32,000 nucleotides of DNA from Candidatus Omnitrophota bacterium (GCA_963662715.1 OY759724.1:2580001-2612000); one strand, 5' to 3'; shown: positions 2,978 to 23,536, counted from the stretch's first letter. Made by a program: numbers and translations. Notes: generated from the letters alone by a model not told the origin.

Positions 2978-3004
2978 TGTCCCTAATCCGGGAGGAGTTT
3001 ATTT

Positions 3005-6827: not shown

Positions 6828-8663
6828 ATGAGAGGGAAAATAGTCTGTTTAATGACATGTTTGTTGTTCCTGCTGAGTTCTGTGAATCCTGTCTTCGCCC
6901 AGACGTTTAAGGAAAGAGTGGGCACGCTGGCTATCGGCGAGGTTCCTGATCCGGGAGAAGTGCAGATCCCCTTCATCACCTGGGGGGGAGACATGATTAC
7001 CTTCTACGCGAACGGGGGGCTTAAGACAGCCAAGGATTCCATCTTCGGCAAGCTTGGTCTTAATGTCAATCTGGTGGCCAGAGACGATCTGGAGCAGCAG
7101 GCTAAAGAATATATGGAGGGGCAAAGCCCTTTCATGAGGGGAACTTTCCGTATGATGGGCCAGGTATCGGAACTGATCGCCAGCAGCCCTAAAACAAAGG
7201 GTGTTATGGTCCTGCAGTTGACCTGGTCGGCCGGGGATCATTGTGTCATACGGAAGGGCGTTAAAACGATCGGCGATTTAAAAGGGAAGAAAATTGTCCT
7301 GCAGCGCGGGGGCCCTCATGTCGGTATGCTGGACGATATCTTAAGAACGGCAAAGTTGACCTGGGATGACGTGACGGTTATTTGGGCTAAAGACCTCACG
7401 GCGTCCCCAGACAGCCCTGCGGAACTTTTCCGCAGCAATGACGATATCGCGGCGTGTTTTGTTATTTCACCTGATATGATCGGTCTCACCGGAGGACTGC
7501 AGAACACCGGTTCAGGGGCGGAAGGGACGGTCGCCGGGGCGCATGTCCTGGTTTCAACGGCTAATATGAGCTATTCCATTGCCGATGTTTATATCGTCAG
7601 AAGCGATTTCTATTATAAACATAAAGCCTGGGTCGAAAAGTTTGTTGCCGGATATTTAAAGGCCGCCGAAGAAGTCGTTGCCTTGCGGAAAGATTATGAG
7701 ACAAAAGGTTCGGATCAGTTTGTGCGGTTGTTGCAGTTGACACAGGATATTTATGGCAAGGAGACGATCCCCACCCTGGAAGAAGATGCGTATGGCTTGT
7801 TGATAGATGCGACCTTGGTCGGGCACCCCGGAAACGTCGCTTTTTTCCGCGATGCGGATAATGCTCACGGGTTTGAGGTCTTCATGGACAGATCTTTGGA
7901 GCTTGCGAAGAACCTGGGCATTGTCAATAAAAAAGTCCCGATCAGCAACAATGATTTTGATTACAATGCCGCCGTTTTTATGAATTATCTGTCCCAGACT
8001 GACGTGGTGAAGAAAGATAAGTTTAAGGCCGAAGCGGTCCAGCGGGAAATCGAAGAGTTGACCGAACGCGGCGGATTGGACGAGAAAACGATCCTGTCTT
8101 TTACTATTGATTTTAAGGCCAATCAGACAGATTTTACCGCTGAAGAATATGCCGCTGATTTCGATGAAGTCATCAACAGCATGGATCAGTTCGGAAATGC
8201 TGTCTTGGCTATTCGCGGCCATGCGGATCCCACTTTGGCTTTGAAAGCATTGGTTGAAGCGGGGATGGCCAAGGGCATTATTCAGAGAAGCGGAAAACAA
8301 GGAAACTGGCAGTACTTTTATAAGGGACGTCCGCTGAATCTTCAGGACACCGCGGAAATCATTTCCCTTATTAACTCCGGGGCTTTTGATCACGGCCAGC
8401 ATAATGCCCGCGCTATTGTGCAGCAGGCCCTGAATTTATCCAGGAAAAGAGCCGAGGCGGTAAGACAAAGTTTTCTGAAATACGCTAAGGGCAAAGGGCT
8501 GGATGTCGACGAAACTCAAATTCAGGCTTTTGGTGTCGGGATACGGGAGCCGCTTGTTCCCAAACCCCGCAATCAATGGGAAGCCAAACAGAATATGAGG
8601 GGTGAATTTTCTCTGATTAGAACGTCTGCTGAAACAATGAATCCTTCTGATTTTGATTTTTGA
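6828..8663 (+). CDS. Secreted fusion protein: NMT1/SsuA/TauA-like solute-binding domain + C-terminal OmpA/MotB-like peptidoglycan-binding domain
   Basis: SD AAGGAGG lies 7 nt upstream. Signal peptide MRGKIVCLMTCLLFLLSSVNPVFA|QT. The N-terminal ~400 aa share blocks with the ABC binding protein at 12982, for example WSAGDHCVIRKGVKTIGDLKGKKI versus SFGADALIVSDKIKDFNDLKKVNV. C-terminal OmpA-like motifs: FTIDFKANQTDF, AIRGHADPT, LNLSRKRAEAVRQSFL, FGVGIREP, NMRGEFSLI. Confidence 0.8.
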   Translation: MRGKIVCLMTCLLFLLSSVNPVFAQTFKERVGTLAIGEVPDPGEVQIPFITWGGDMITFYANGGLKTAKDSIFGKLGLNVNLVARDDLEQQAKEYMEGQSPFMRGTFRMMGQVSELIASSPKTKGVMVLQLTWSAGDHCVIRKGVKTIGDLKGKKIVLQRGGPHVGMLDDILRTAKLTWDDVTVIWAKDLTASPDSPAELFRSNDDIAACFVISPDMIGLTGGLQNTGSGAEGTVAGAHVLVSTANMSYSIADVYIVRSDFYYKHKAWVEKFVAGYLKAAEEVVALRKDYETKGSDQFVRLLQLTQDIYGKETIPTLEEDAYGLLIDATLVGHPGNVAFFRDADNAHGFEVFMDRSLELAKNLGIVNKKVPISNNDFDYNAAVFMNYLSQTDVVKKDKFKAEAVQREIEELTERGGLDEKTILSFTIDFKANQTDFTAEEYAADFDEVINSMDQFGNAVLAIRGHADPTLALKALVEAGMAKGIIQRSGKQGNWQYFYKGRPLNLQDTAEIISLINSGAFDHGQHNARAIVQQALNLSRKRAEAVRQSFLKYAKGKGLDVDETQIQAFGVGIREPLVPKPRNQWEAKQNMRGEFSLIRTSAETMNPSDFDF

Positions 8664-8803
8664 TTTATAACGGCTTTTTTACGGGGGCTGTGTGCGAACC
8701 TTAGTCGCTTCGGAATCCGGAAGTTCAAGAATGGCTTCCGATACGGCGGCGGGACGTTTTGTAAACAGACGTGCGGCGCCGAAGGATGTCCTTTACGGAA
8801 GAT

Positions 8804-8832
8804 ATGCCTCTCCAGAGGCGAGGCATGTTTTT
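8804..8832 (+). terminator. Candidate intrinsic terminator/attenuator hairpin in the 227-nt spacer upstream of the VWA gene
   Basis: ATGCCTC (8804-8810) pairs with GAGGCAT (8820-8826): a 7-bp stem and a 9-nt loop. It is followed by G then TTTTT (8828-8832). It lies ~140 nt after the upstream stop and ~60 nt before the GTG at 8891. Confidence 0.3.
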
Positions 8833-8890
8833 GCAAAACAGAAGAAATTGGCAAGGATGGCTTGAATCATTTGAATTCTAGGAGGTTCAT

Positions 8891-9613
8891 GTGAAAAGAT
8901 TGATTTGTTGGGTGATTCTTCTAAGTTGTGTTGGGATACGCCCGGCGTTTGCCGGGAATGTCTATGCCGATAATCTTGTTGTTATTATTGACTGTTCCGG
9001 CTCTATGCAGGGACAAAAGCTCAAAGAAGCCAAAACAGCCTTGCGGGAGGTCCTCAACAGCATTCCCCGCTCAGTTCATATCGGCTTATTGGCTTTCGGC
9101 GGCAGCCAGGGATGGCAGTTCAACCTGGGGCCGCGGGATGATTCGTACCTTAATCTGGCGATAGATAAACTGCAGGCCGACGGCAACACGCCTCTGGGGG
9201 AGTACATGAAATATGGTGCGGACCGTCTTCTGCAGCAAAAAGAAACTCAGCTGGGATACGGCAATTACCGGCTGCTGATTATAACTGACGGGGAAGCCTC
9301 TGATCCCAAAGCCGTAGAGAAATATACTCCTGAAATTATGGCGAGAGGAATATCTGTGGACGTCATCGGAGTCTACATGAACAAAGCCCACAGTTTGGCG
9401 ACGAAAGTTCATTCTTATCGGGAAGCCAGAGACGCGGCGACATTAAAAAAGGCTATTAAGGAAGTTGTGGCGGAAATAGAAGAACAGAAAAACGATACCG
9501 GGACGGACACGGCATTCTCAGACCTTGCCCCTTTGCCGGATGAGATGATCGTTGAGATTATTAAAGCCCTGACGGCGGCTCCGCTGTATCCCATAGGCAA
9601 CAGGGGGCAATAA
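8891..9613 (+). CDS. Secreted von Willebrand factor A (VWA) domain protein with intact MIDAS
   Basis: GTG start, 5 nt after GGAGG (8881-8885). Signal peptide MKRLICWVILLSCVGIRPAFA|GN. MIDAS residues: DCSGSM (DxSxS), ADGNTPLGE (Thr), LLIITDGEASD (Asp). Confidence 0.85.
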   Translation: MKRLICWVILLSCVGIRPAFAGNVYADNLVVIIDCSGSMQGQKLKEAKTALREVLNSIPRSVHIGLLAFGGSQGWQFNLGPRDDSYLNLAIDKLQADGNTPLGEYMKYGADRLLQQKETQLGYGNYRLLIITDGEASDPKAVEKYTPEIMARGISVDVIGVYMNKAHSLATKVHSYREARDAATLKKAIKEVVAEIEEQKNDTGTDTAFSDLAPLPDEMIVEIIKALTAAPLYPIGNRGQ

Positions 9614-9636
9614 CCTAAGAACGGGGACTTGAATTT

Positions 9637-11205
9637 ATGGGGAATAATTCGTCTAAATGGATCGGTATCCTTGTCATGTGGTGTGTTCTTTTGGCTTTTG
9701 GATTAGCGGTCATTTTTAAATATGTTTTTAAGCCGCATCAGGATAAGAAACTGGAACAAATGACTTCGGCTGTCAGCCAGTATGAGCATGAGGTGACGGT
9801 CAACCTGGACAGCTTTTCCGGATACAGCATCCTCCGGTCCGATGTTTTTAAAGAAGAATTGAAAGCGGCTAAAATCCGGGTGGCTTTTCAGGATGACGGC
9901 GCGGATTATCACAATAGAATACGGGCCCTGGAAGAAGGGGCGTGCCAGTTTGCTGTTTTTACCGTAGATTCCCTTATCACCTCTTCCGTTGAGCTCGGGT
10001 CCTGGCCGGGGACAATTGTCTTGGCCATAGATGAGTCCCATGGGGCGGACGCCGTTATAGCTTACAAAGCAAGCATGCCCAATCTCAACAGCCTGGATGA
10101 CCCTGACGCCAGAGTTGTTCTTACGCCGAATTCACCGAGTGAATTTATGGCGAGGATCATCAAAGCCCATTTCAGCCTGAAAGATTTATCCAAGAAATAT
10201 ATTGTTCCGGCAGACGGCTCAAGCGATGTTTACGAAAGATTCAAAGACGCTGCGCCTTCGGTCAAACAGGCTTTTATCATGTGGGAACCGGAAGTCTCCA
10301 AAGCCCTGGAGGTTCCCGGCGCTCACGTTCTGCTGGATTCGTCGAAAATCAAAGGGCATATTTTTGACGTCCTGGTTGTCCAGCGGGAGTTCCTGGCCGA
10401 TTTCCCTTCCACCGCCCAAAAAGTGATTGAAGCGTACCTGCGGGCCGCGTACGCGTACCGGCAGTCGATGACAGAGCTTGTTTTAAAGGACGCGAAAGCA
10501 ACGGGAAGCCGTTTGACGCAGGCCCAGGCGGAGAAAATTGTCCGGGGGATCAGGTGGAAGAACAGCATCGAGAACTATGCCCATTTTGGCTTGTTGGAAA
10601 AAGACGCGACGAAGGGGCTGGATCATATCGAAGATATTATCCAAAAGATTACGGATGTCCTGGTTAATACCGGCGCTCTGGATTCCGACCCTTTTTCCGG
10701 AAGTTATCACAAGTTGTTTTATGACAAGCTGCTCAGTAATCTCAAACATGAAAATTTCCATCCCGGGAGGAAGGTTAATCTTTTGGCCGGTGATATGGGC
10801 CTTTCGAACGATGAAGTTATCCGCGGGACGAAGGCACTGGCGCCTTTAACAGACCAGGAATGGGAACAGCTTGTCCCGGTCGGACGCATGAAGATCAATC
10901 CGGTCAGTTTCGGCCGGGGAAAATCAAGTGTCGGCATTCAGAGTCAGCGGGATCTGAAAAAATTGTCGGAAAAGATAAAATCCTGGCCGAGCTATTATCT
11001 GTTGGTTGTAGGGCATGCCAGAAAAGAAGGGGATCCTCAGCTGAACCGTCAGCTGGCCAAGGAACGGGCGGAAGTCGTTAAGATGTTCCTGATTGATGAC
11101 TGCGGGATTAACGCGAACCGGGTCCGGGCTAAAGCCGCCAAAGTTTTTAACAGGGGAGGCTCGGGTCAATCTGTTTCTTTTGTCGTTGGGCAGATGCCCT
11201 ATTAG
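9637..11205 (+). CDS. Inner-membrane-anchored fusion protein: solute-binding-like domain + C-terminal OmpA/MotB-like domain
   Basis: 522 aa. Single N-terminal TM helix WIGILVMWCVLLAFGLAVIF. The central domain is paralogous to the 12982 binding protein (ESHGADAVIAYKAS versus TSFGADALIVSDKI; DYHNRIRALEEGACQFAVFT versus DYDSTIQLYASGQADAVCIT). C-terminal OmpA-like motifs: YLLVVGHARKEGDPQLNRQLAKERAEVVKMFL, NRVRAKA, SVSFVVG. Confidence 0.8.
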   Translation: MGNNSSKWIGILVMWCVLLAFGLAVIFKYVFKPHQDKKLEQMTSAVSQYEHEVTVNLDSFSGYSILRSDVFKEELKAAKIRVAFQDDGADYHNRIRALEEGACQFAVFTVDSLITSSVELGSWPGTIVLAIDESHGADAVIAYKASMPNLNSLDDPDARVVLTPNSPSEFMARIIKAHFSLKDLSKKYIVPADGSSDVYERFKDAAPSVKQAFIMWEPEVSKALEVPGAHVLLDSSKIKGHIFDVLVVQREFLADFPSTAQKVIEAYLRAAYAYRQSMTELVLKDAKATGSRLTQAQAEKIVRGIRWKNSIENYAHFGLLEKDATKGLDHIEDIIQKITDVLVNTGALDSDPFSGSYHKLFYDKLLSNLKHENFHPGRKVNLLAGDMGLSNDEVIRGTKALAPLTDQEWEQLVPVGRMKINPVSFGRGKSSVGIQSQRDLKKLSEKIKSWPSYYLLVVGHARKEGDPQLNRQLAKERAEVVKMFLIDDCGINANRVRAKAAKVFNRGGSGQSVSFVVGQMPY

Positions 11206-11300
11206 CCTGGCCGGCATATCAGCGATATTAAATTATGAATCTCAGGGCAGATTTGATAAATTGACTAAAAAAAGTTCCTGAACATCAAGATCATCAAGTC

Positions 11301-12044
11301 ATGGGTATAAATAAAAAACGACTGTGGTGGAAGTTTTTTCAAATCCTTTTTGCAAAGATACCAGTCGTCCTGAGTGTGGGAATTACGGTTATCCTGTTTC
11401 TGGCGGGATGGGCTATTAATTTCAGAGGAGCTTTGTTAAATGCTTTCATATGGATTATGTCTTTGATAACATTGGGGACGATAGGCCATCTTTTTATCCT
11501 CTCCGGGGATCAAATGGCCAGGCAGGCTATGCAGGATTTAAAAAAAGAGGCGGATGATTCAAGGCAGGAAAGACTGGATGACCTTTATGACCGGCTGGCC
11601 AAGGACCGGGATCCGCGGACGCACCGCGCTTTAAAAGAATTGCGGGAACTGGCGGCGGCGGTAAAAGACAGTGCCACTGAAGAATCGACGCTGGACGCCC
11701 GTTCAAAGTTTGAGATGGATTATAAGGTCGAGCAGCTTTTTCAGAAATGTGTGAACCGGCTCGAAAAATCTTTAAAGTTATTAAAGAATGCCCAGGCCAT
11801 CTCGAATCAAGACGTTAAAGAAAAGCTGCTGTCTTTGCGAGAGAACCTTTTAGAGGAAGTGCAGAAGACTATTCGCTATTTGGGGGAAATCCTGACCAGG
11901 ATCCAGGTCCTGCATCAAAAAGAAACATCCGATGATTCCGATATGAAGAATATCATGTCAGATCTTGAAGAGGGGCTGGCCGTCGCGGAGAGAGTCGATT
12001 TGAAGATGAAAGAGCTGGAGCAAAATAAAGACGTTCTGGAATAA
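11301..12044 (+). CDS. Two-TM membrane protein with long cytoplasmic coiled-coil tail, unknown family
   Basis: 247 aa. Basic N-terminus (KKRLWWK). Two hydrophobic helices: IPVVLSVGITVILFLAGWAI and ALLNAFIWIMSLITLGTIGHLFIL. About 170 aa of charged heptad-like sequence follow. The RBS is weak. It sits directly upstream of the PspA-like gene. Confidence 0.65.
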   Translation: MGINKKRLWWKFFQILFAKIPVVLSVGITVILFLAGWAINFRGALLNAFIWIMSLITLGTIGHLFILSGDQMARQAMQDLKKEADDSRQERLDDLYDRLAKDRDPRTHRALKELRELAAAVKDSATEESTLDARSKFEMDYKVEQLFQKCVNRLEKSLKLLKNAQAISNQDVKEKLLSLRENLLEEVQKTIRYLGEILTRIQVLHQKETSDDSDMKNIMSDLEEGLAVAERVDLKMKELEQNKDVLE

Positions 12045-12112
12045 AACCCAGTTTTCATATAAGAAGCTGTTGCTAAGATAAAAGTTAACATCATTAAACA
12101 GGAGGCATTCCT

Positions 12113-12952
12113 ATGTTTAGAGCTATCGGGAAACTTTTCAAAACGATCGGTTACGCTCTGACCGGACGGATTAATGAGATTAGTGAAATTTGGGGAGAGG
12201 ATCCTTATGTCGTTGGTGAGAAATACAACTCCATCCTGGAGGAAAAGAAGGCCCGTTACCAGACGATTACCAGGGCTGTTTCCCGTCTCATGACGTCCTT
12301 GGACAAGAAGAAGAAACAACTGGAAGCGTACCGGCAACAGGCCGAAGCAAAAGAGAAGATGATGAAGGGGGCTAAGATTGCGGGACAAAAACGTGCGCGG
12401 GAGTTAAAAAGCCAAGGGATGACAATTGAGAAGATAAAATCCGATGAAAAGATCAAGGAATTCGCCGCAAAACGAAATGATGCCAGCTCTTCGTTGACCC
12501 TGTTGCAGAACGACATTAGTAATCTTGAGACGGAAATTGAAGAAGATACCCGGGAGCTGAAGTCCTTTGAAAGGGATATCAAGCAAATGCAGCGGGAGTT
12601 TGAAAACTTGCAGCAGGAACGGGACCGGGCCATCGCCAAAGTCGCTTCGGCCAAGGAGAGAAAAGATCTATATGAGATGAAGGCCGGCATCAGTAATGAT
12701 GAGACGGCAGAGCTTTTAAAAGAGGTGAGGGACTCGGTCAGTAATGTGGAGAATTTAACCAAATTGGCTGCGAAAACGTCAGGCTATGAAAATAAGGCCG
12801 AGGAAGAAGAATTGATCGCGCTCGCAGAGTCAGGAGGTGAAGAGGAGTTTTTCAATGAGATCGGATTGAGCGAGGACCCAACGCTTTCTGCCGACGTCGA
12901 AAAGAAAGAGAAACCCAAGGTGGCAGAGGGCGGAGATCAGTATCAAGAATAA
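12113..12952 (+). CDS. PspA/IM30/Vipp1-family (ESCRT-III superfamily) coiled-coil protein
   Basis: SD GGAGG lies 7 nt upstream. The N-terminus MFRAIGKLFKTIGYALTGRINEISEIWGEDPYVV aligns by eye with E. coli PspA [29 protein letters not shown] (amphipathic helix followed by the EDP motif). Then ~200 aa of coiled coil and an acidic tail (EEEELIALAESGGEEEFFNEIGLSEDP). Confidence 0.7.
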   Translation: MFRAIGKLFKTIGYALTGRINEISEIWGEDPYVVGEKYNSILEEKKARYQTITRAVSRLMTSLDKKKKQLEAYRQQAEAKEKMMKGAKIAGQKRARELKSQGMTIEKIKSDEKIKEFAAKRNDASSSLTLLQNDISNLETEIEEDTRELKSFERDIKQMQREFENLQQERDRAIAKVASAKERKDLYEMKAGISNDETAELLKEVRDSVSNVENLTKLAAKTSGYENKAEEEELIALAESGGEEEFFNEIGLSEDPTLSADVEKKEKPKVAEGGDQYQE

Positions 12953-12981
12953 ATGGACCGGTTTTTTAAAAGCAGGAGGTT

Positions 12982-14043
12982 ATGATGAAAAAAGTTTTTG
13001 TATGGCTGTCGTTTTTTGCTGTGTTGAGTTTTTTGTTAAGCGCGAGCCCTGTCAGGGCCCAGGAGTACCCGGCCTTCACTTTAGCCTGGAGTGAATATCC
13101 GTCATGGAGCACTTTTGGCGTTCTGCATGAAGCCGGTGTCATAAACGGGGCTTTAGGAAAAGTCGGCCCGGTAGAGGAGAAATGGGGAGTCGACATCGTT
13201 TTGGAAGAAATGGATTATGATTCTACGATTCAATTGTACGCTTCGGGACAAGCCGATGCCGTGTGTATTACGAATATGGATATTTTAAGCCCTTCGCTGT
13301 CCTTGAATTCCGTGGCCGTCTTGCCCACATCGACCTCTTTCGGGGCGGATGCTCTTATTGTGTCGGATAAAATTAAAGATTTTAATGACCTGAAGAAAGT
13401 CAATGTCGCGGGGCTTGATTTAAGTGTTTCGAGTTACACGTTTGATGCTAACCTGGAACTGCAGGGAGAAAATCCGGACCAGTATAGGTTTGTGAACATG
13501 GATCCGGCTACCGCGGCTCTCCAGTTTCAGCAGGGGGCCTTGGATGCCATTGTCGTCTGGAATCCTTTTGTGCTTGATACGTTAGAAAAAAGGAGCGATT
13601 CCCGGGTCATGTTTGATTCTACGTCCATCCCCGGAGAAATCATTGATATGGTTGTCGTGAGCCAGGCGTCGTTGGCCAAACCCCAGGGCAAGGCCTTTGC
13701 CTCGGCCGTAATCGACGCTTTTTATGAGTTAAATAAAATGCTGGCTGACCCGGCGGAAGGTGACGACACGCTTATTGCTTTAGGGGAAAAATTCAGCAAC
13801 CTGGGCCTGCAGAGCATGCGTAAAGTTGTTAAACAAACCAAGTTTTACAGTACGCCTGAGGAGGCTTTGCAGTTATTGGAGGGGGAGCAGTTGAAGGCGA
13901 CGATGAAGAAAGTCGTGGCCTATTGTGTGAAAAGAGAAATTGTCGAGCAGGCCCCGATGGTGACTTTCGGGACGCAGCAGCAGGGGAATCTGCTTTTTGA
14001 TTCCTCCTATATCAAGAATGTCATGGCAACCCCCAAGGAATAA
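12982..14043 (+). CDS. ABC transporter periplasmic substrate-binding protein (NitT/TauT, NMT1/SsuA-like)
   Basis: AGGAGG at 12974-12979. ATGs at 12982 and 12985; 12985 has the better spacing. Signal peptide VWLSFFAVLSFLLSASPVRA|QE. It directly precedes a cognate permease and ATPase. The substrate cannot be inferred. Confidence 0.8.
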   Translation: MMKKVFVWLSFFAVLSFLLSASPVRAQEYPAFTLAWSEYPSWSTFGVLHEAGVINGALGKVGPVEEKWGVDIVLEEMDYDSTIQLYASGQADAVCITNMDILSPSLSLNSVAVLPTSTSFGADALIVSDKIKDFNDLKKVNVAGLDLSVSSYTFDANLELQGENPDQYRFVNMDPATAALQFQQGALDAIVVWNPFVLDTLEKRSDSRVMFDSTSIPGEIIDMVVVSQASLAKPQGKAFASAVIDAFYELNKMLADPAEGDDTLIALGEKFSNLGLQSMRKVVKQTKFYSTPEEALQLLEGEQLKATMKKVVAYCVKREIVEQAPMVTFGTQQQGNLLFDSSYIKNVMATPKE

Positions 14044-14049
14044 ACTTTC

Positions 14050-14856
14050 ATGATCGGACCATCTTTGAAGCCTGTGCCCAGAATAATGATTATGGCGGCC
14101 TCTGTCATGATCATTATTCTGGGATACACATATCTGGCCCACAAACAGCACATCAAAAATCCTAAGGACAAAACGATCCCGACTTGGGTTCAGCTTAAAG
14201 AAGGCGTGGAGAAGATCTTCGAAAAGAATAAACGTTCGGGAGAACGTTGGATCGTTGTCGATGCCCAGGCTTCAGCCCGCAGGCTTTTCCTGGGGCTTCT
14301 TTGGGGCATTGCCGGGGCTGTTGCGGTCGGATTGGCGATAGGGTGTTTCCCGGTCATGGAAGCGGTTTTTGCCCCGTCTTTAGCGATTCTTGCCAAGCTT
14401 CCTCCGACGGCCGCCTTGGCTTTGTTTTTTGTTATGCTGGGGACGGGTACCAGTATGTTTGTCGGTATTATTGTTGTCGGTATTCTGCCGGTTCTGGCGC
14501 AAAGCATTTATCTGGCGATCAAGGATGTTCCCAGAGAATTAATTGATAAAGCGACGACGTTAGGCGCTTCCCGTCCCGAACTTGTTTGGAACGTCATTGT
14601 TTTCCATGTCCTGCCGCAGATCATCAACGCCATCCGGCTGCAGATCGGCCCGGCGCTTGTTTACCTGATCGCGGCGGAATATGCGACAGCGCATATCGGT
14701 TTCGGGTACCGGCTGCGTTTACAGGCACGGCTGGTCAATATGGATGTGGTTTATCCTTATTTGGCTATTCTTATTATTTTCGGTTTCTTGATGGACGGGG
14801 TTCTTAAATACGCCATGAACCGGTTGTGCCGATGGTATGAATATGAAGGGCGGTAA
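14050..14856 (+). CDS. ABC transporter permease (NitT/TauT family, SsuC/TauC-like)
   Basis: 268 aa, about six hydrophobic helices. Conserved cytoplasmic-loop region LIDKATTLGASRPELVWNVIVFHVLPQI, then LIAAEYATAHIGFGYRL. It starts 6 nt after the upstream stop and abuts the downstream ATG. Confidence 0.85.
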   Translation: MIGPSLKPVPRIMIMAASVMIIILGYTYLAHKQHIKNPKDKTIPTWVQLKEGVEKIFEKNKRSGERWIVVDAQASARRLFLGLLWGIAGAVAVGLAIGCFPVMEAVFAPSLAILAKLPPTAALALFFVMLGTGTSMFVGIIVVGILPVLAQSIYLAIKDVPRELIDKATTLGASRPELVWNVIVFHVLPQIINAIRLQIGPALVYLIAAEYATAHIGFGYRLRLQARLVNMDVVYPYLAILIIFGFLMDGVLKYAMNRLCRWYEYEGR

Positions 14857-15813
14857 ATGTTGAATGAAATCGTAATGGACATTAAGGATGTGAGCCATTC
14901 CTTCGGGAAAGGCCCGAAACGGAATCGTGTCCTGCACAATATTAATTTAAAAATCAGGGAAGGGCAGATTGTGTCTGTTGTGGGACCTTCCGGCTGCGGG
15001 AAATCGGTGCTGTTGCGTGCGATTCTCGGAACCCACCCTCCGGAACAAGGGCAGATTGTCGTTTACTCCGGACTTCAGAATGAGATTGCCAATTTAAGAT
15101 TAAAACCGGACAGAAATATCGGTATTGTTTATCAGCGGTACAGCCTGTTCCCGTTCTTAACGGCTATTGAAAATGTCGCGTTTGGTCTTATGCTGGATCA
15201 AACGGGTATTTTGGGCCGGCTGTTTCATCCTTGGAAATGGCGGAAGATGAGGAAAGGGCATTTTGCTCAGGCCGCGGAATTATTGGAGAAACTGAAGCTC
15301 AAAGAGGCCATGCACCGCTATCCGTCCCAATTGTCGGGAGGCATGTGTCAGCGAGTGGCCATTGCACAGGCCCTTATTATGAAACCGCGGATTTTGCTGT
15401 TGGATGAGCCGTTCGGCGCCTTGGATGAAGCGACCAGAGCGGAATTGCAGGATCTTGTCCTGCGGTTATACATAGAAAATACGTCAGCGAGGCAAAAAAA
15501 GCAAAAACCCCCGTATACAATTATGATTGTTACACACGAGTTAAATGAAGCGATACGGGTCGGTGACCGGGTTATAGGGTTATCGATGTACTGGAACTGG
15601 AGGCAGGAAATCCAGTCTTTCCCCGGCACAACGATCGTTTATGATAAAAGTGCGCCCGTTTTTCTGCCTGAGGAACCGGTCGATTATTCAAAATTGCAGG
15701 AGCAGAAGGACGAGATCGCTAAAGCTGTTTTTGATCCTGCTTATTGCCAGGACCGTGATGAGTTCAGGAAATTTTGGGTCGAACAGCAGATCAATACGAC
15801 AACGATCCTGTAA
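14857..15813 (+). CDS. ABC transporter ATP-binding protein (NitT/TauT family)
   Basis: Walker A GPSGCGKS, Q-loop VYQRYSLFP, signature LSGGMCQR, Walker B ILLLDEPFGALD, H-loop VTHE. At 318 aa it is longer than I would expect for this family. The extra length sits in the helical subdomain, after Walker B, and in a ~60-aa C-terminal tail. Confidence 0.9.
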   Translation: MLNEIVMDIKDVSHSFGKGPKRNRVLHNINLKIREGQIVSVVGPSGCGKSVLLRAILGTHPPEQGQIVVYSGLQNEIANLRLKPDRNIGIVYQRYSLFPFLTAIENVAFGLMLDQTGILGRLFHPWKWRKMRKGHFAQAAELLEKLKLKEAMHRYPSQLSGGMCQRVAIAQALIMKPRILLLDEPFGALDEATRAELQDLVLRLYIENTSARQKKQKPPYTIMIVTHELNEAIRVGDRVIGLSMYWNWRQEIQSFPGTTIVYDKSAPVFLPEEPVDYSKLQEQKDEIAKAVFDPAYCQDRDEFRKFWVEQQINTTTIL

Positions 15814-15945
15814 GGGCCCGGCCCCGCCGTCAGGGCACCGGCATTTAAGCTGTATTTGAATGAAACATGAAGCAAGGTTGTGAATTTTGGTAGAAGCATC
15901 AGAAGCCTGCGACCCTAAACGTCGCACAGAAAAGGATGGATATAA

Positions 15946-17679
15946 ATGAAAGCACCGAAATATGATTTTCTTCTTGAAACGGGACGTGTGTTGAATTCTT
16001 TGGAATCCAGTACGATTGTTTTGACGGGAAACGTGCACGATCATTTTTATGTCTCCAAGACAGATAATTACGTGCCGCTTGTTGATTTCATGAAAGAGAG
16101 TATGAGCTTAAGCACCAATGTCATTGTGACGTATAAAATTACCGGGAAGATCAAATTTCAGAATGAACGCGATTTGAAATCGTTTGCCGGCGCCTGGGAA
16201 TATTGGCGTTACGAAACAGAATTTGAAGACGATTTTATGACACTGTGCCAACGGACAGCCGGGAACGTGACTTATGCTTTGGAATTGTTGCGGCAGATGT
16301 GTCTGTGTTCCAATGCCGTAGATGCCAACGGGCTTCCGGTTTTTGAAAAGAAACTTTTGATTATCATCGAAGCCGTGGAAACGATTGTCCCTTCCGGCCC
16401 GGTAAGCCATTTAAACGATAGCGAACGCATGCGTCTGCAGATATGTCTGGACTGGTTTAAAGATCCGGCTTTCATGGAAACGAGCGATGCGGTCATCCTT
16501 ATTGCGGAATCAAAGGGCATGATCAATCCTGTGATCGCCCGGCTTCCTCACGTGATTGAAATAGGTGTGCCTTCGCCGGATACGGAGCAAAGGTTTCATT
16601 TTATCGAATGGTTTAATAAGAGACAGGACAGAAAACAAAAACTCAAACCGAGCCGGAAAAAGAAAAATTTGTCGCAGCTCACGACCGGTTTGAGTATCCT
16701 CGCTTTGAGGCGGCTTCTTAAAAGCACTGTTCATAAAGGCGGGATGATTCAGGAAGAGGCTGTCAACCGGGAGGTGAAGCGTTTCATTGAACGGGAATTG
16801 GGTGATATCGTGGAGTTTAAAGTCCCTGCGCATAAATTGACGGATGTCGTTGGGTGTCATGTCATAAAAAAATATGTTCAGGACAAAGTCATCCCCAGGT
16901 TCACGAGTACGGAGAAAGATTGCCTCCCGGGGGCCACGATTTGCGGACCGATCGGGAGCGGAAAAACATTCTTTTGGGAAGCTGTCGCGGCGGAATCGGG
17001 CATGATTGTTCTGGTCCTGCGGCAATTGAGAGACAAATGGTTTGGGGAAAGCGACGTGCGGCTTGAACGCTTGCGGCGGATTCTATACACCTTTGTCAAT
17101 GTGCTGGTGTTCATAGATGAGGCTGATACCCAGTTCTCCAATCTTGGCGAAGGGGAGATCCATGCCACAGAGAAACGGATTCAAGCCGGTCTTTTAACCA
17201 TGATGTCGGATCCCCAGCTTCGGGGAAAAGTGAAGTGGCTCCTTTTGACAGCCAGGATCGACAGGCTTTCGCATGATATGCTAAGACCCGGCCGCCCGGG
17301 AAGTCTGATTATCCCGATGCTGGATCCTCACGGGAAGGACCGGGAGTCTTTCGCCTGTTGGGCGGTCACTCCTGTTTTGGAGAAAAAACCGGATAAACAG
17401 ACCATGACGGAAATTTTAGATTTAACAAAAGGATATTTTGCCGCTATGTTTTCCGAGTTGCGGTCTGAATTGCTGGCCGAAGCCAAAGGAAAGACATTGA
17501 CCCTTCCTGCCGTTAAATCGATTATCCAGGATATCGTTCACCCGGCCATAGGAAAGACAAGAGAATATCAATCCTTGTGTGCAAAAATTTATTGTAACAG
17601 GCGCAGTCTTCTTCCTTCGAAGGAAACCCGGGAGGACTGGCAGAGCCGTCTGAAGGAATTGAAGTCATCCATGAAATAA
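15946..17679 (+). CDS. Classic-clade AAA+ ATPase with a degenerate N-terminal AAA-like half
   Basis: 577 aa. C-terminal half: Walker A GPIGSGKTF (nt ~16945-16968), LRDKWFGESDVRLERL (compare kyvGEse..vr), Walker B VLVFIDEAD (17101-17127), and an SRH-like block LLLTARIDRLSHDMLRPGRPGSLIIPMLDP. The N-terminal ~235 aa repeat the same strand/helix rhythm without a P-loop: IVLTGNVHDHF, LLIIIEAVE, VILIAESKGMINPVIARLPHVIEIGVPSPDTEQR. Confidence 0.85.
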   Translation: MKAPKYDFLLETGRVLNSLESSTIVLTGNVHDHFYVSKTDNYVPLVDFMKESMSLSTNVIVTYKITGKIKFQNERDLKSFAGAWEYWRYETEFEDDFMTLCQRTAGNVTYALELLRQMCLCSNAVDANGLPVFEKKLLIIIEAVETIVPSGPVSHLNDSERMRLQICLDWFKDPAFMETSDAVILIAESKGMINPVIARLPHVIEIGVPSPDTEQRFHFIEWFNKRQDRKQKLKPSRKKKNLSQLTTGLSILALRRLLKSTVHKGGMIQEEAVNREVKRFIERELGDIVEFKVPAHKLTDVVGCHVIKKYVQDKVIPRFTSTEKDCLPGATICGPIGSGKTFFWEAVAAESGMIVLVLRQLRDKWFGESDVRLERLRRILYTFVNVLVFIDEADTQFSNLGEGEIHATEKRIQAGLLTMMSDPQLRGKVKWLLLTARIDRLSHDMLRPGRPGSLIIPMLDPHGKDRESFACWAVTPVLEKKPDKQTMTEILDLTKGYFAAMFSELRSELLAEAKGKTLTLPAVKSIIQDIVHPAIGKTREYQSLCAKIYCNRRSLLPSKETREDWQSRLKELKSSMK

Positions 17680-17719
17680 GTGATACGATTTCTGATGTCA
17701 TAAAGACCTGGGATGCACA

Positions 17720-19144
17720 TTGCGTATATTGCTTGTAAATGTTGGCCGTCGGGCACAGTTTCCGCAATCCATATCTCCTCCTTTAGGAATTATGTGCTTG
17801 GCCGCGTATCTTCGCAGCAAATTTAAGGCCGAGATATGTCTGATTGATCAGCTGCTGGATAATTGTCTCAATCATCGTCTTGTCAAAAGGATTTCGGATT
17901 TCAGACCGGATGTCGTGGGCCTCAGCAGCATTATTCCGACCGCCCACAATCTCCCCGACCTTTCCCGGCAAATACGGACGGCATTGCCCCGCTCCCTGAT
18001 TGTGGTCGGTGGAGGATACGTTTCTTCTATCGGATCCCAGACCCTGCAGACAACCGCCGCTCATGTGGCTGTCCCCGGTGAGGGAGAACGGGCTTTTGAA
18101 GAAATCCTTCATGCCCGCCTTGATGGAGGGGGCCTTGCGCATATCCCCGGCATTCACTGGCGTGATCAGTATGATCATGTCGTGTCTAACCCCGGTGAGC
18201 GGTTATATATTGAAGACCTGGATTCTCTTCCCTTTCCGGCCTATGATTTGATTAACCTTCCGGGGTACTGGAAACATCAGTCATTTTCTTCCATCATCAA
18301 AAACAGATATCTTTCTCTTTACAGCAGCCGGGGCTGTCCCTATCAGTGCAGTTATTGTCACCGTATCTTTGGCCGCCGGTTCCGTTTTCATTCCGCCGCA
18401 AGAATTGTGGAGGAAATTAAATATTTTAAAAAGTTTTATCCTATTGATGACGTGGAATTTTTTGATGATATCTTCAACCTCAATCATCAAAGAATTTTTG
18501 AGTTCTGTGATCTGCTGCAGAAAGAGGGCCTGAGGCTTAAATTGTCTTTCCCCAACGGTGTGCGCAGCGATATCCTGACGGAGGAAGAACTGCGTGTCCT
18601 GATTGATGCCGGCTTGTATTTCTGCAGTTTTTCGCTGGAGTCCGGCTCCCCTCGGATCCAAAGATTGATCGGCAAAAACCTTGATATTCAGAAATTTTTA
18701 AAAATTGTCGAGAGCGCGGCAAGACAGGGTGTTTTCTGCAACGGTTATTCCATGCTCGGTTTTCCGACAGAAACGGAAGCGGAGATAAGACAGACGATTG
18801 ATGTCGCCTGTGGCTCCAGACTTCATACATGCTCTTTTTTTACCGTGACCCCGTTTCCTAATACAGATGTTTTTAACAACGTTATGCAGACAAATCCGGA
18901 AAAGCTTTCCGGAATCTGTTATGACGATATGGAATATTCCACGCTTCACTGCAATGTTTCTGATGTCCCGGATGAAACATTATTTTCACAGCAGCGCAAG
19001 GCCCACAGGAGGTTTTATTTGACGCCCAGCCGTATATGCCGCATACTCAGAGATTATCCTTCGCCGCGATCATTGCCTTTGATTCTGCCTGTTTTACTTT
19101 CGAGACTCACAAAAGGTCTCTTTCCCCGGAACCCTTCTGCTTAG
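17720..19144 (+). CDS. B12-binding-domain radical SAM protein (class B rSAM)
   Basis: TTG start; there is no in-frame ATG near the N-terminus. The N-terminal Rossmann-like block ILLVNVGRR...PPLGIMCLAAYLRS...DVVGLSSI is typical of the cobalamin-binding domain. Radical SAM cluster motif SSRGCPYQCSYCH (CxxxCxxC, nt 18335-18358). Confidence 0.88.
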   Translation: MRILLVNVGRRAQFPQSISPPLGIMCLAAYLRSKFKAEICLIDQLLDNCLNHRLVKRISDFRPDVVGLSSIIPTAHNLPDLSRQIRTALPRSLIVVGGGYVSSIGSQTLQTTAAHVAVPGEGERAFEEILHARLDGGGLAHIPGIHWRDQYDHVVSNPGERLYIEDLDSLPFPAYDLINLPGYWKHQSFSSIIKNRYLSLYSSRGCPYQCSYCHRIFGRRFRFHSAARIVEEIKYFKKFYPIDDVEFFDDIFNLNHQRIFEFCDLLQKEGLRLKLSFPNGVRSDILTEEELRVLIDAGLYFCSFSLESGSPRIQRLIGKNLDIQKFLKIVESAARQGVFCNGYSMLGFPTETEAEIRQTIDVACGSRLHTCSFFTVTPFPNTDVFNNVMQTNPEKLSGICYDDMEYSTLHCNVSDVPDETLFSQQRKAHRRFYLTPSRICRILRDYPSPRSLPLILPVLLSRLTKGLFPRNPSA

Positions 19145-20190: not shown

Positions 20191-20286
20191 AACAGGTGGG
20201 GAGTTGTTTTTCTAAATAACAACTGAAGATAACTGCCGTCTTGGGCGTTTATATTTAAGGACATAACAACATTCTTGGAGGATGAT

Positions 20287-23200
20287 ATGAAAAAACGTAT
20301 TCTTGTTTCCTTGGCCCTTATCCTTTTTTCATGTGCAGTTTCCCCTGCAGAAGTATTGGCTGAAGGCCAGCAGACCTGTGCTGCACCTGCCATTCTGGCC
20401 GAACAGCAAATTTATGTCCCTTACGAAGATCTTAAAGAGGTCTTGGGGCAAAAGGAAAAGGGGATTTTCCTCCCGCATTCTGATTTCCTGAAGTTGTGGG
20501 AGAAAGCGACTAGGAAACCTCCGGAAAAGATTCTTCCTCCTCCGCCCGTTGAGGCAGCTATTATTCATGCAGAATATAAAGGAACCGTTTACGAGGATAT
20601 CGCGGAATTTCATGCCAAAATGAAGGTTTCAGCCCTTAAGAAAGAATGGGCGAACCTTTTCTTGAATATTCAGGATATTGCCATTACATCTTTATCCTTG
20701 AACGGGACGACGCCTCTTTTAAAACCGGTGGACGGGGGGTTGCTGCTTATTTTGCCGGAAAAAGGAGATTATGAACTTGAGCTTGATTTCTCGGCGCGTG
20801 TCAATACATCCCCCGGAGAAAAATATATCGATTTCCGGATCCCTTCTTCACCGCTGACAAAAATCGATATGACCATCCCGGGGAAGGATCTGGACGTGAA
20901 AGTCGAACCGATGCTTTCTCAAAAGAGTCAGGTCGTTGGCAATAATACGGAATTTTCCGCGTTCCTTTCCCCGGAAGGTATCGTCAATGTCAGATGGCTG
21001 GCTAAGTCGACAGAGAGCAAAGCTGATAAAAGTCTTATATTCGCAAAACTCTTCAGTGAGTTATATGTCAAAGAGTCCGTATACCTGCTTAATACGCAGA
21101 TTAGTCTTTCTGTCATGCAAGCCAAGGCGGATTCCTTTAAGGTAAGAATCCCCCGGGAACTAAGTTTGGTGCGGGTTGACGGTAAAAATATTAAAGATTG
21201 GGAGATGGCCGAAGATGGTGTTCTGAGCGTGAATCTGTATGAGGAGATTGAAGGGGATTATGTTTTCTCCGTGCTCACGGAGAAATACCGCGACTTAAAT
21301 GAAACATCGTTCGCTGTGCCGCAATTCGAAATCGTAGATGCGAAACGGGAAGACGGAGAAATTATTATCAAAGCAGATCCTTCTCTGCGGGTTAATGTCG
21401 AGAAAAAAGACCGGGTGACGCAAATCGATCCCAAAGAACTGCAGGGCCGGATAACCTTTGAAGAATTTGTGTCCGCTTTCAAATATTTCAGGCGTCCGTA
21501 TTTCGTGAACCTCAGTATTTCCAAGATTCAGCCTAAAATAAGGGCGGAACAGAATATTTTTATTTCCTTCTCCGAAACGATTATTGACTACCATACCAAT
21601 ATCCATTTTAAAATAAAAGACGCCGGTCTTTTTAAATTCCGGTTTCTCATCCCTGATCATTTCCGGATCGCGGAAGTCGGAACAGATGCCACGGTCGACA
21701 GTTTTGCGGTTTCCCGGGAGGAGGGGCAGGATATTTTGACTGTTGTATTGAAAAACAAAGCTTATGGGGATTTCTTGTTGCCGATTCATTTAGAGGCCGA
21801 TAAGGAAGACAAGGATGTCGATCTGGCCATGCCTAAACTGCAGTGCCTGGATGCCGAGAAGGAAGAGGGCGTCATCGCTCTTTCTCTGCGGAAAAATCTC
21901 AAGCTTTCCACGGAGGCCATTAAATTTCTGCGGCCGATAAGTTTGGAAGAACTGCAGATGCAGGGGATACGGGATGCCGATATTAAGAATGAGATTGCGG
22001 CGGGATACCGGTATTCCACGCCGGATTATTCCTGCCAGTTGAAGATTGACAAGCGAAAGACGAAGATCATTGCTAATGTCGAGAGGAATGTTGACATTGA
22101 GGAAGCCGTTATGAAGGTGAATGATGTCATTCATTATAATATCCTTTATGCTCCGGTCAGTTTGTTTAAAATTGAACTGCCTCTTGCCATAGCCAAAGAG
22201 GCTGTCATCAGCGGCCATAACATCAAAGAAAAGAGGTTTATAAAAGACGAACAGACCAAGAGGGGAATATGGGAAGTCGAACTGCATTCCCCGGTGCTGA
22301 ATCAATTCACACTTAACGTCAATTTGGAAAAGAAACTTCCGTCCATCAAGACCGGGGAAAAAAGAATAATTCATATCCCCGGCATCCGGGTGCTTGATGT
22401 TTTTAATGAATCAGGATACATCTCTGTGGCTAAGAGTCCCAATCTTCAAGTCGAAGCCCAAGAGAACAACCTTGAGCCTATAGATGCGAAGGAACTTCCT
22501 TCAACGATAAACCGCAGCCAGAGCATTTTAGCCTTCCGGTATCTCAGCCATCCGTATTCTCTGGCCCTGGAAACCACAAGACATGAATACGAGAAGGTGC
22601 TTGATGCGATCGTTAACCAGGCTCACTTCGATATTGTTGTTTCGAATGAAGGAATGGCGAAGACCGAAGGGGTTTTTAAAATTCAAAATACGAACAGGCA
22701 AAGCCTTGAATTGATGCTGCCCCCGGGGACCGACAAAATTTACTCTGTTTTTATCTCCGGGAAGAAAGCCAGCATTTCCCGGGGCAGTTCCGAAAGGAAC
22801 AAGATCATCATGCTGCCCAAAGACATAACGCCCGGGCAGGAGTTTACTTTAAGAATCATCTATCAGACAAAATTCAGGTCTGCTTTTGGATTTATCGGAA
22901 GCCTCCGGGCGGAGAACGCTGAAATCATGGATATCCCCATTTCAAAGATCACCTGGAGAATTTATCTTCCATCCGAATACAGCTACATTTATATGGCCGG
23001 ATCAGTGAATCCCGCCACTGCCGGCTATTATTCCTTTGATACTGTCAATCAGGGCCTCCGCTCACAGAGGGTCCATAGCCAAAGAAAGATAACCTTAGAT
23101 ACGGCCCAGATCCCTCAGCAGAATGATGAAAGTGCTCTATACGGCCTTGACATTGATATGGTGCGTGAAGGCCGGATGTTTTCTTTTTCGAAATTGGATA

Positions 23201-23535
23201 AAGAAGCTTTTCTCAATATCCTGTATATGAAGAAAAATGTCCTGTTGCCTTTAAGCCTCATGATTGTTGGGTTGACGGCATTTTTCTTGACAACTGTCAT
23301 GCGCAAAAAAGATATCAACAGAATGAAAGTGGGGATAATTTTCTTGGGCACGGTTATTGTTTTGCGTATATTCCTGCCGCAAGGCTTTAAATATTTCATT
23401 TCCCTCATTCTTGCGGGGACGGCCCTTACCGGAGGCGCGTTTCTTGTCTATTCTCATTATAAAGGAAAGACGTATTTCCGTAAGACGGGCAAGGATATGG
23501 AGACAGTCAAGAAAAGCGAGCAGGAAAAGAAATAA
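20287..23535 (+). CDS. Giant envelope protein, module copy 1 (1082 aa): signal peptide, large extracytoplasmic region, C-terminal 3-TM anchor; uncharacterised family
   Basis: GGAGG at 20277-20281, 5 nt before the ATG at 20287; the ORF-track TTG at 20275 is less likely. Signal peptide MKKRILVSLALILFSCAVSPAEVLA|EG. C-terminal helices: VLLPLSLMIVGLTAFFLTTVM, VGIIFLGTVIVLRIFL, YFISLILAGTALTGGAFLVYS, then a basic tail. Codon-level coherence holds over 3.2 kb. Confidence 0.85.
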   Translation: MKKRILVSLALILFSCAVSPAEVLAEGQQTCAAPAILAEQQIYVPYEDLKEVLGQKEKGIFLPHSDFLKLWEKATRKPPEKILPPPPVEAAIIHAEYKGTVYEDIAEFHAKMKVSALKKEWANLFLNIQDIAITSLSLNGTTPLLKPVDGGLLLILPEKGDYELELDFSARVNTSPGEKYIDFRIPSSPLTKIDMTIPGKDLDVKVEPMLSQKSQVVGNNTEFSAFLSPEGIVNVRWLAKSTESKADKSLIFAKLFSELYVKESVYLLNTQISLSVMQAKADSFKVRIPRELSLVRVDGKNIKDWEMAEDGVLSVNLYEEIEGDYVFSVLTEKYRDLNETSFAVPQFEIVDAKREDGEIIIKADPSLRVNVEKKDRVTQIDPKELQGRITFEEFVSAFKYFRRPYFVNLSISKIQPKIRAEQNIFISFSETIIDYHTNIHFKIKDAGLFKFRFLIPDHFRIAEVGTDATVDSFAVSREEGQDILTVVLKNKAYGDFLLPIHLEADKEDKDVDLAMPKLQCLDAEKEEGVIALSLRKNLKLSTEAIKFLRPISLEELQMQGIRDADIKNEIAAGYRYSTPDYSCQLKIDKRKTKIIANVERNVDIEEAVMKVNDVIHYNILYAPVSLFKIELPLAIAKEAVISGHNIKEKRFIKDEQTKRGIWEVELHSPVLNQFTLNVNLEKKLPSIKTGEKRIIHIPGIRVLDVFNESGYISVAKSPNLQVEAQENNLEPIDAKELPSTINRSQSILAFRYLSHPYSLALETTRHEYEKVLDAIVNQAHFDIVVSNEGMAKTEGVFKIQNTNRQSLELMLPPGTDKIYSVFISGKKASISRGSSERNKIIMLPKDITPGQEFTLRIIYQTKFRSAFGFIGSLRAENAEIMDIPISKITWRIYLPSEYSYIYMAGSVNPATAGYYSFDTVNQGLRSQRVHSQRKITLDTAQIPQQNDESALYGLDIDMVREGRMFSFSKLDKEAFLNILYMKKNVLLPLSLMIVGLTAFFLTTVMRKKDINRMKVGIIFLGTVIVLRIFLPQGFKYFISLILAGTALTGGAFLVYSHYKGKTYFRKTGKDMETVKKSEQEKK

Positions 23536-23536
23536 T

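Follow-up and report, generated by a model that had tools for sequence, protein, structure and literature searches.

A conserved nine-gene operon of Candidatus Omnitrophota with a PspA-like protein and a predicted classical AAA+ ATPase

Operons in which a PspA-family gene is linked to a protein made of an inactive and an active AAA domain have already been described in silico by Ravi et al. (mSystems, 2024; PMC11237479). These operons also carry ATP-binding cassette (ABC) transporter genes and a PBPB+OmpA protein (examples, AEY64321.1 and OGG56892.1), and an ATP-dependent, Snf7/Vps4-like remodeling was proposed for PspA and its AAA partner in the same work. Here, we analyzed a 32,000-nucleotide stretch of a Candidatus Omnitrophota genome (GCA_963662715.1, OY759724.1:2580001-2612000; hereafter the window, with positions counted from its first letter) that carries nine colinear genes on the + strand at 6828-17679, named g1 to g9. 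Among them, g5 encodes a divergent member of the PspA/Vipp1 family (ESCRT-III superfamily) and g9 a predicted two-domain classical AAA+ ATPase. Since operons with PspA and two AAA domains were described in PMC11237479, the locus extends a class known in silico by a new member of Omnitrophota type, and the idea of PspA remodeling by an AAA+ protein has been in the literature since a 2020 preprint and the 2024 paper. The original prediction, made from the sequence of this locus, remarked that an AAA+ partner is not part of the textbook Psp response; the idea is not new, as both the association and the Vps4-like remodeling had been put forward there. The present analysis confirms the association, defines the operon and its tail motif more sharply, and adds an example from a further phylum. 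We found no experimental study of a PspA-like/AAA+ pairing in the literature, and, according to a 2025 review of ESCRT-III systems in bacteria and archaea, a Vps4-like ATPase "appears absent in bacteria" (PMC7619361).

The locus among described systems

The likeness to the class of Ravi et al. lies in the pairing of a PspA-family protein (g5) with a two-domain AAA+ protein (g9) whose N-terminal copy appears inactive. It extends to the ABC ATPase, the permease, and the solute-binding and OmpA components (here g1, g3, g6, g7, and g8), as well as to a transmembrane (TM)/helical protein. The published Handelsmanbacteria order is PspA, PBPB+OmpA, permease, ABC, TM+Snf7, and AAA, whereas the window has two solute-binding protein (SBP)+OmpA proteins, a separate SBP, and a predicted periplasmic von Willebrand A (vWA) protein. 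No vWA protein is mentioned in PMC11237479 or its supplement. For the TM protein of the window (g4), a Snf7 domain could not be confirmed, and the family identity with g5 and g9 was assigned by matching architecture, not by alignment.

With ESCRT-III/Vps4 (CdvB/CdvC), the operon shares an ESCRT-III-superfamily gene accompanied by a classical AAA+ with the K-W-x-G-E-S pore loop and the second region of homology (SRH), and a putative polymer subunit whose flexible tail bears a conserved C-terminal motif. However, g9 has neither an MIT nor a Vps4_C domain, carries an extra degenerate AAA domain, and scores best against Cdc48/VAT/PAN rather than CdvC, while g5 falls on the PspA/Vipp1 branch and not on the Snf7 branch. 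Instead of ESCRT-I/II-type or CdvA-type partners, the operon encodes ABC importer, OmpA, and vWA proteins. The Psp and Lia systems resemble it in having a PspA-family effector with an amphipathic helix that is encoded right after a small membrane protein (LiaI or PspB/C, in the position of g4 here), but g4 does not match PspB, PspC, or LiaI-LiaF-TM, and the AAA+ is of the classical unfoldase type rather than an NtrC-type activator. None of the PspB/PspC, LiaI, PspF, or LiaRS families was found in g4 or in the other scanned open reading frames (ORFs) of the window.

Operons of FtsZl1 with vWA and OmpA proteins have been predicted to remodel membranes (Makarova and Koonin 2010, PMC2875224). They likewise combine a cytoplasmic filament-former with a signal-peptide vWA protein and OmpA-family peptidoglycan binders, but their filament is an FtsZ/tubulin-like GTPase, they have no classical AAA+ and no ABC importer, and the core components are not homologous. 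A reading of the locus as a MoxR-vWA pair was rejected, since g9 matches only classical AAA families and the N terminus of the vWA protein is signal-like, which predicts a periplasmic location.

Conservation and features of the core proteins

Conservation of the neighborhood was surveyed with one genome per GTDB species, among which at least 420 genomes carried a g9 relative. The best 80 loci were taken, hidden Markov models of g1 to g9 were run on all six-frame ORFs of the fetched loci, and duplicates and loci with less than 9 kb of DNA upstream of g9 were set aside, which left 56 for the counts. In 54 of these, g5 lies upstream of g9 on the same strand, bearing out the co-occurrence on which the original prediction depended, and 35 have all nine genes, with g1 to g8 upstream of g9 in the order of the window. 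This order is kept in Omnitrophota, Acidobacteria, Verrucomicrobiota, Planctomycetota, Desulfobacterales, Lentisphaerae, Kiritimatiellae, Hydrogenedentota, and CSSED10-310; look-ups in Acidobacteria, Verrucomicrobiota, and Planctomycetota returned the identical nine genes in identical order. A metagenome-assembled genome assigned to Desulforapulum autotrophicum (L083) is among the carriers of the operon. Because the same gene order recurs across many phyla, the clustering of g1 to g9 far exceeds chance. Insertions push the operon partly out of range in four loci, nine loci (Poribacteria) have g4, two or three g5 paralogues, and g9, and six are bare g5-g9 dyads without transporter, vWA, or OmpA genes (Nitrospiraceae, Hydrogenedentota, Thermoanaerobaculia, and Poribacteria). 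The last two have no g5 in range, one of them (L021) being an operon split by an insertion of ~8 kb. Given that minimal g5-g9 dyads exist, this pair is the conserved evolutionary core, and g4 with the transporter, OmpA, and vWA genes a frequent extension.

The set originally proposed consisted of three genes, g4 (11301-12044, 247 aa), g5 (12113-12952, 279 aa), and g9 (15946-17679, 577 aa). These ORFs are exactly as claimed, all on the + strand, but the real unit comprises nine genes, and the ABC importer genes between g5 and g9 and the three genes upstream (6828-11205) had been missed.

Some loci have peculiarities of their own. A complete nine-gene operon of bacterial type, including the OmpA-domain genes, was found in a bin labeled "Candidatus Bathyarchaeia archaeon" (L022, 630-11809), for which mis-binning or horizontal transfer is likely. 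Limisphaerales operons have an extra 138-aa ORF without a Pfam family between g6 and g7 (L003, 7829-8245), and in Poribacteria a conserved, unannotated ORF of ~600 aa, also without a Pfam family, stands between g5 and the AAA+ gene. In a Verrucomicrobia metagenome-assembled genome (L054, 4216-7898), Roadblock/LC7-domain proteins and a Ras-like small GTPase, together resembling an MglA/MglB set, take the place of g1-g6 in front of g7-g8-g9.

Direct searches with g5 against Pfam, NCBIfam, and the PDB (phmmer) gave coiled-coil noise and a sub-threshold PspA match only, so family profiles were needed. A word-seeded search recovered nine close homologues, all from Candidatus Omnitrophica, and a HMMER search of 1.84 billion representatives yielded 299 family members, nearly all of 260-292 aa and matching end to end. 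A 20-sequence profile matched Vipp1/PspA structures at ~2e-4 (for instance, 41-248 aligned to 31-210). With 138 sequences, the best solved Vipp1/PspA match was 6zvr (E = 6.7e-10), and six more Vipp1/PspA sequences followed between 1.8e-9 and 1.1e-7, among them 8qbr (1.8e-9) and 7o3w (1.1e-7). PF04012 (PspA_IM30) was matched by 31 of the 138 members at E ≤ 0.01 (best, 3.1e-8), and every other Pfam family by at most five. The family profile also picks up coronavirus HR1 coiled coils, matches that we regard as compositional.

The AlphaFold2 (AF2) model of g5 (mean pLDDT of 71, above 87 in the hairpin) has helices at residues 2-23, 31-100, 112-191, 195-223, and 228-239, following the ESCRT-III helix order of alpha0, an extended alpha1/alpha2-3 hairpin, alpha4, and alpha5. 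The top nine Foldseek matches of this model in the PDB were all Vipp1/PspA (E of 7e-4 to 6.5e-3 over 205-252 columns), with TM-scores of just 0.3-0.5, and the g5 hairpin is longer than that of Vipp1. The alpha0 segment (residues 1-23, nt 12113-12181) is predicted to be helical, with low model confidence; the hydrophobic moment of its first 18 residues, MFRAIGKLFKTIGYALTG, is 0.59, and the amphipathic helix is conserved in the family. An EDP junction follows at residues 29-31 (nt 12197-12205). Thus, the amphipathic helix with EDP that had been noticed in the sequence is indeed present, and the PspA/IM30 assignment of the 279-aa protein is upheld by family-profile and structure matches to Vipp1/PspA, though remote ones. 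From these profiles and the model, we take g5 to represent a divergent branch of the PspA/Vipp1 family, a remote but real relative.

The last 54 residues of g5 include 18 D/E and only 5 K/R. They contain the helix EEEFFNEIGL (residues 243-252, nt 12839-12868), the counterpart of (S/D)EFDxLIGL in the family, and continue with a disordered acidic linker up to a C-terminal YQE (nt 12941-12949). The acidic tail and its hydrophobic patch had been recognized before, and the patch is conserved; a second conserved element at the very end had escaped notice. In the 65 family members surveyed, the C terminus has three parts: (S/D)EFDxLIGL, a variable linker of ~20-30 residues rich in acidic, Ser, and Lys residues, and a conserved extreme end. 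Fifty members end in LPE, 10 (Poribacteria) in LPL, 4 (Omnitrophota, including the window) in YQE, and 1 in LPV, and most of the wider representatives have K-hydrophobic-P-E within 0-3 residues of the terminus. The EFxxLIGL helix and the terminal hydrophobic-Pro-Glu tail are a plausible handle for the ATPase, judging from their conservation. In ESCRT-III paralogue sets, the Vps4-binding motif is carried by some subunits only. Poribacteria show a similar distribution, with the tail kept by the full-length g5 paralogue only and the extra paralogues ending before it. Two loci are informative on whether the tail is present only where there is an AAA+ gene; L086, which has neither the AAA+ nor the hydrophobic-Pro-Glu tail, speaks for this, and L088 is contrary (see below).

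The poribacterial arrangement can be seen in L059 (6379-8032 and 8145-9953), and similarly in L063, L064, L075, and L077, where a full-length g5 (278 aa, ending in ELPL) is accompanied by one or two truncated paralogues without the tail. L086 (4806-13960) is a divergent copy of g1 to g8 with no AAA+ gene past the ABC ATPase; within a few kilobases after it are a sigma-70 gene and a Band_7/flotillin gene (17470-19137).

The ATPase domain of g9 (15946-17679) has all the hallmarks of the classical clade that had been attributed to it. Pfam PF00004 is matched at E = 1.7e-15, and the C-terminal half contains the Walker A motif GPIGSGKT (residues 334-341, nt 16945-16968), the pore loop KWFGESD (364-370, nt 17035-17055), the Walker B motif FIDEAD (389-394, nt 17107-17127), and RPGR of the SRH (447-450, nt 17281-17301), all of them invariant or almost so in 13 diverse family members. 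The family is large, with more than 2000 matches of ~605 aa and 42-46% identity across phyla. No hydrophobic segment was detected in g9, which is predicted to be cytoplasmic. Among NCBIfam models, the window protein scores 45 bits with CDC48, 36 with PAN, and 24 with CdvC, and the best E values among the 13 members are 7.5e-19 for CDC48, 1e-13 for PAN, 2.8e-12 for CdvC, and 1e-9 for FtsH. The family matches classical AAA families only, none close to its cutoff. Among solved structures, VAT, AFG2/SPATA5, and p97 match best and katanin far less well. In Pfam, there was no match to MIT (PF04212, E ≤ 0.01) or Vps4_C, and neither Pfam nor NCBIfam gave a DNA-binding or sigma-54-interaction domain.

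The N-terminal half of g9 (approximately residues 1-285) has no P-loop, the pattern GxxxxGK[ST] being absent. By hhalign, it aligns with the C-terminal half over 210 columns (E = 6.8e-4, at a probability of just 27%), with Walker B, sensor, and lid in register and IIIEAVE opposite FIDEAD. We consider with moderate confidence that it is a degenerate, inactive AAA domain. On this evidence, g9 is a classical-clade AAA+ of an uncharacterised family. As for the proposed Vps4-like ATPase, the classical clade stands, but the lack of MIT and Vps4_C, the degenerate N-terminal half, and scores nearer to Cdc48/VAT/PAN than to CdvC indicate that g9 is no Vps4 orthologue. By profile scores and domains, it could be Vps4-like at most in function, in neither ancestry nor architecture.

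Directly upstream of g5, both in all full operons and in the Poribacteria operons, stands g4 (11301-12044), with no Pfam family of its own. Its product has a basic N terminus, two hydrophobic segments between approximately residues 12 and 68, and then a cytoplasmic domain of ~180 aa of helices, in agreement with the two TM segments described earlier. An AF2 model built from three sequences places helices at 44-99, 105-125, 133-166, 170-206, and 212-246, and the family alignment contains the motif LDxL..L..D.DPRTE..LRDLR (nt 11574-11654). We asked whether g4 corresponds to the TM+Snf7 protein of the published class, and four tests were all negative: none of 21 members matched Snf7 or PspA in Pfam, the family profile matched no PDB sequence, hhalign of the g4 family against the g5 family gave a probability of 0.5%, and Foldseek with the three-sequence model returned designed helical bundles at best (E = 0.034) and no ESCRT-III fold. 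There was also no match to PspB, PspC, or LiaI-LiaF-TM. Adjacency makes g4 a candidate membrane partner, anchor, or nucleator of g5. Its absence from the g5-g9 dyads indicates that it is dispensable for the core. Thus, of the "dedicated anchor" first proposed, the conserved adjacency to g5 remains, but the gene is missing from dyads and no relationship to PspB/C, LiaI, or Snf7 was detected.

A possible remodeling mechanism and its alternatives

The interpretation we favor, with slightly better than even confidence, is that g5 forms a membrane-bound polymer of the PspA type, that g5 subunits are extracted or remodeled by g9 in an ATP-driven manner, probably via the tail, that g4 positions the polymer, and that the module is connected to the envelope and to a solute through the ABC importer and the periplasmic proteins. 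In such a scheme, g5 would bind the cytoplasmic face of the inner membrane via alpha0 and, as expected from its family, polymerize like PspA/Vipp1, and g4 may localize or nucleate the polymer, as their conserved adjacency suggests. The AAA+ protein g9 would form a ring whose active C-terminal AAA domain threads its substrate through the KWFGESD pore loop. By gripping the EFxxLIGL helix and/or the terminal hydrophobic-Pro-Glu tail of g5, it could pull out subunits, so that polymer turnover or remodeling would be paid for in ATP. The job that Vps4 does for ESCRT-III would be done here by a non-orthologous, Cdc48-like two-domain ATPase. The domains of the two SBP+OmpA proteins, the vWA protein, and the NitT/TauT-type importer may link the module to peptidoglycan and to the uptake or sensing of small solutes. 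The independent prediction in PMC11237479 lends support to a remodeling of g5 by g9. As to what could have spoken against the original prediction, the g5 family does match PspA, g9 falls in no clade with a known unrelated substrate, and the genes co-occur; its observations are confirmed and its interpretation is partly supported.

Several results weigh against a remodeling of g5 by g9. Taken alone, g5 misses Pfam PF04012 (10.6 bits, E = 0.43, for a cutoff of 33.9); the sub-threshold alignment is near full length (residues 9-238, covering positions 3-201 of the 220 in the profile). The hhalign comparison of the g5 family with a single E. coli PspA sequence gave no signal, and we treat it as uninformative because the template carries no sequence diversity. 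One locus (L088) has the AAA+ gene together with a g5 that lacks the hydrophobic-Pro-Glu tail, so that the link between tail and ATPase is not strict, and another (L054) is the only one truly without g5 while keeping g7-g9. The roles of the transporter, vWA, and OmpA genes are unaccounted for by the mechanism, and g9 relatives more remote than the best 80 surveyed, out of at least 420, may differ in their neighborhoods.

An unlikely alternative is that g5 serves g9 as a regulator or adaptor and is not its substrate, with membrane stress freeing g9 to act on damaged or mis-inserted membrane-protein clients. E. coli PspA, which binds and inhibits the AAA+ protein PspF (PMC7619361), sets a precedent, the tight g5-g9 linkage would suit a regulator-enzyme pair equally well, and the L088 AAA+ coexists with a tail-less g5. 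However, g9 belongs to the classical clade, has an intact threading pore loop, and matches no PspF-like domains, and the g5 tail, a long disordered linker ending in a conserved motif, is more typical of an unfoldase handle. We give still less credence to g9 being a chaperone that assembles the envelope complex of the operon or controls its quality, with g5 merely a co-expressed membrane stabilizer. AAA+/vWA pairs such as MoxR-vWA and Mg-chelatase are common in bacteria (PMC2875224), g9 comes directly after the ABC ATPase gene, and 35 of the 56 loci keep the nine genes. Yet the vWA, SBP, and OmpA-type proteins are predicted to be periplasmic and g9 cytoplasmic, g9 lies outside the MoxR clade, and both the dyads and the Poribacteria operons keep g5 and g9 without any transporter, vWA, or OmpA gene.

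The failure of g5 alone to reach the Pfam PspA threshold, its weak matches to many unrelated coiled-coil families, and the scores of coronavirus HR1 coiled coils against the g5 profile could also be taken to mean that the PspA-like call is a coiled-coil artifact and the genes mere neighbors without a shared function. This is very improbable, as the genes are colinear over about ten phyla, Vipp1/PspA is both the top structural match and the top true-family sequence match over nearly the full length, and PF04012 is by far the commonest Pfam family among g5 members.

Beyond this locus, it is possible, although we place it somewhat below an even chance, that many bacteria, especially of the PVC group (Omnitrophota, Verrucomicrobiota, Planctomycetota, Lentisphaerae, Kiritimatiellae, and Poribacteria), own a functional counterpart of ESCRT-III/Vps4. 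It would consist of a polymer of the PspA branch that is disassembled or remodeled by a dedicated, tail-recognizing classical AAA+ and wired to a peptidoglycan-tethered periplasmic sensor/transporter complex. If so, ATP-driven turnover of ESCRT-III-superfamily polymers would be no archaeal or eukaryotic invention, or would have arisen twice, which would change both the account of how the ESCRT-III/AAA+ partnership evolved and the explanation of PspA-family polymer dynamics in bacteria. Linkage of such a module with an ABC importer and OmpA/vWA proteins would then be a new type of trans-envelope coupling. The operon family, present in at least 420 species-level genomes, with a compact core of a PspA-like gene and an AAA+ gene and a candidate recognition tail, offers a clonable candidate answer to how PspA/Vipp1 polymers get disassembled.

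The other genes of the operon and their surroundings

The intergenic gaps from g1 to g9 are, in order, 227, 23, 95, 68, 29, 6, 0, and 132 nt. The first gene, g1 (6828-8663, + strand, 611 aa), encodes a putatively secreted, solute-binding-like protein of the NMT1/THI5 type (Pfam NMT1, E = 3.4e-6, residues 75-284) with a hydrophobic, signal-like segment at the N terminus and a C-terminal OmpA-like peptidoglycan-binding region (E = 6e-4 at 525-580, under the Pfam cutoff). It is followed by g2 (8891-9613, + strand, 240 aa), the predicted periplasmic vWA protein (Pfam VWA, E = 1e-16), which also starts with a hydrophobic, signal-like segment and has an intact DxSxS MIDAS motif (DCSGS, nt 8990-9004). 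Both g2 and g3 are kept in relatives as the second and third genes of the operon. The product of g3 (9637-11205, + strand, 522 aa) appears to be anchored in the membrane by a single N-terminal hydrophobic segment (residues 5-33) and combines an SBP-like region (TIGR03427-type similarity in NCBIfam, E = 8.7e-10, residues 121-269) with a C-terminal OmpA-like domain (Pfam OmpA, E = 3.8e-8, residues 425-500).

Between g5 and g9 lie the importer genes, all on the + strand. The first of them, g6 (12982-14043, 353 aa), encodes the periplasmic, substrate-binding component of an ABC importer of the NitT/TauT type, with a signal-like N terminus, a Pfam NMT1 match at E = 1.7e-6, and a TIGR03427 match (E = 1.1e-46) whose 159 bits are under the cutoff of 334. 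The permease is encoded by g7 (14050-14856, 268 aa; Pfam BPD_transp_1, E = 5.9e-11; TauC/SaoP-like, E of ~1e-21) and, with no gap, the ATP-binding protein by g8 (14857-15813, 318 aa; Pfam ABC_tran, E = 5e-34).

Inside the 227-nt gap between g1 and g2, a GC-rich 13-bp hairpin is followed by TTTTT, a U-run in the transcript (8801-8834, + strand). The fold of the whole gap (8664-8890) has a z-score of -2.36, and the gap is unusually long here, being short in relatives. From its sequence, the hairpin could be a partial terminator or attenuator that sets g1 expression higher than that of g2 to g9. Promoter and terminator consensus scans gave nothing exceeding shuffled expectation, and an Rfam scan of the whole window gave no family. 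We also considered a known defense system and rejected it, as PADLOC gave just generic coiled-coil, ABC, and AAA similarity.

A gene for a B12-binding radical SAM protein (17720-19144, + strand) begins 40 nt past g9; it was excluded as an operon member because there was only one weak match to it among 85 related loci. Further downstream are two very large ORFs on the + strand, 20275-23535 (1086 aa) and 23357-31600 (2747 aa), without a Pfam match at E ≤ 0.001, the former with a hydrophobic, signal-like N terminus and hydrophobic stretches at its C terminus. Upstream of the operon, at 20-3907, the window carries a metal ABC transporter of the ZnuABC type, made up of ABC_tran, two ABC-3 permeases, and ZnuA. 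The Acidobacteria copy of the operon (L001) also adjoins an ABC-3/ZnuA pair (13732-15563), on the opposite strand, which may be a coincidence.

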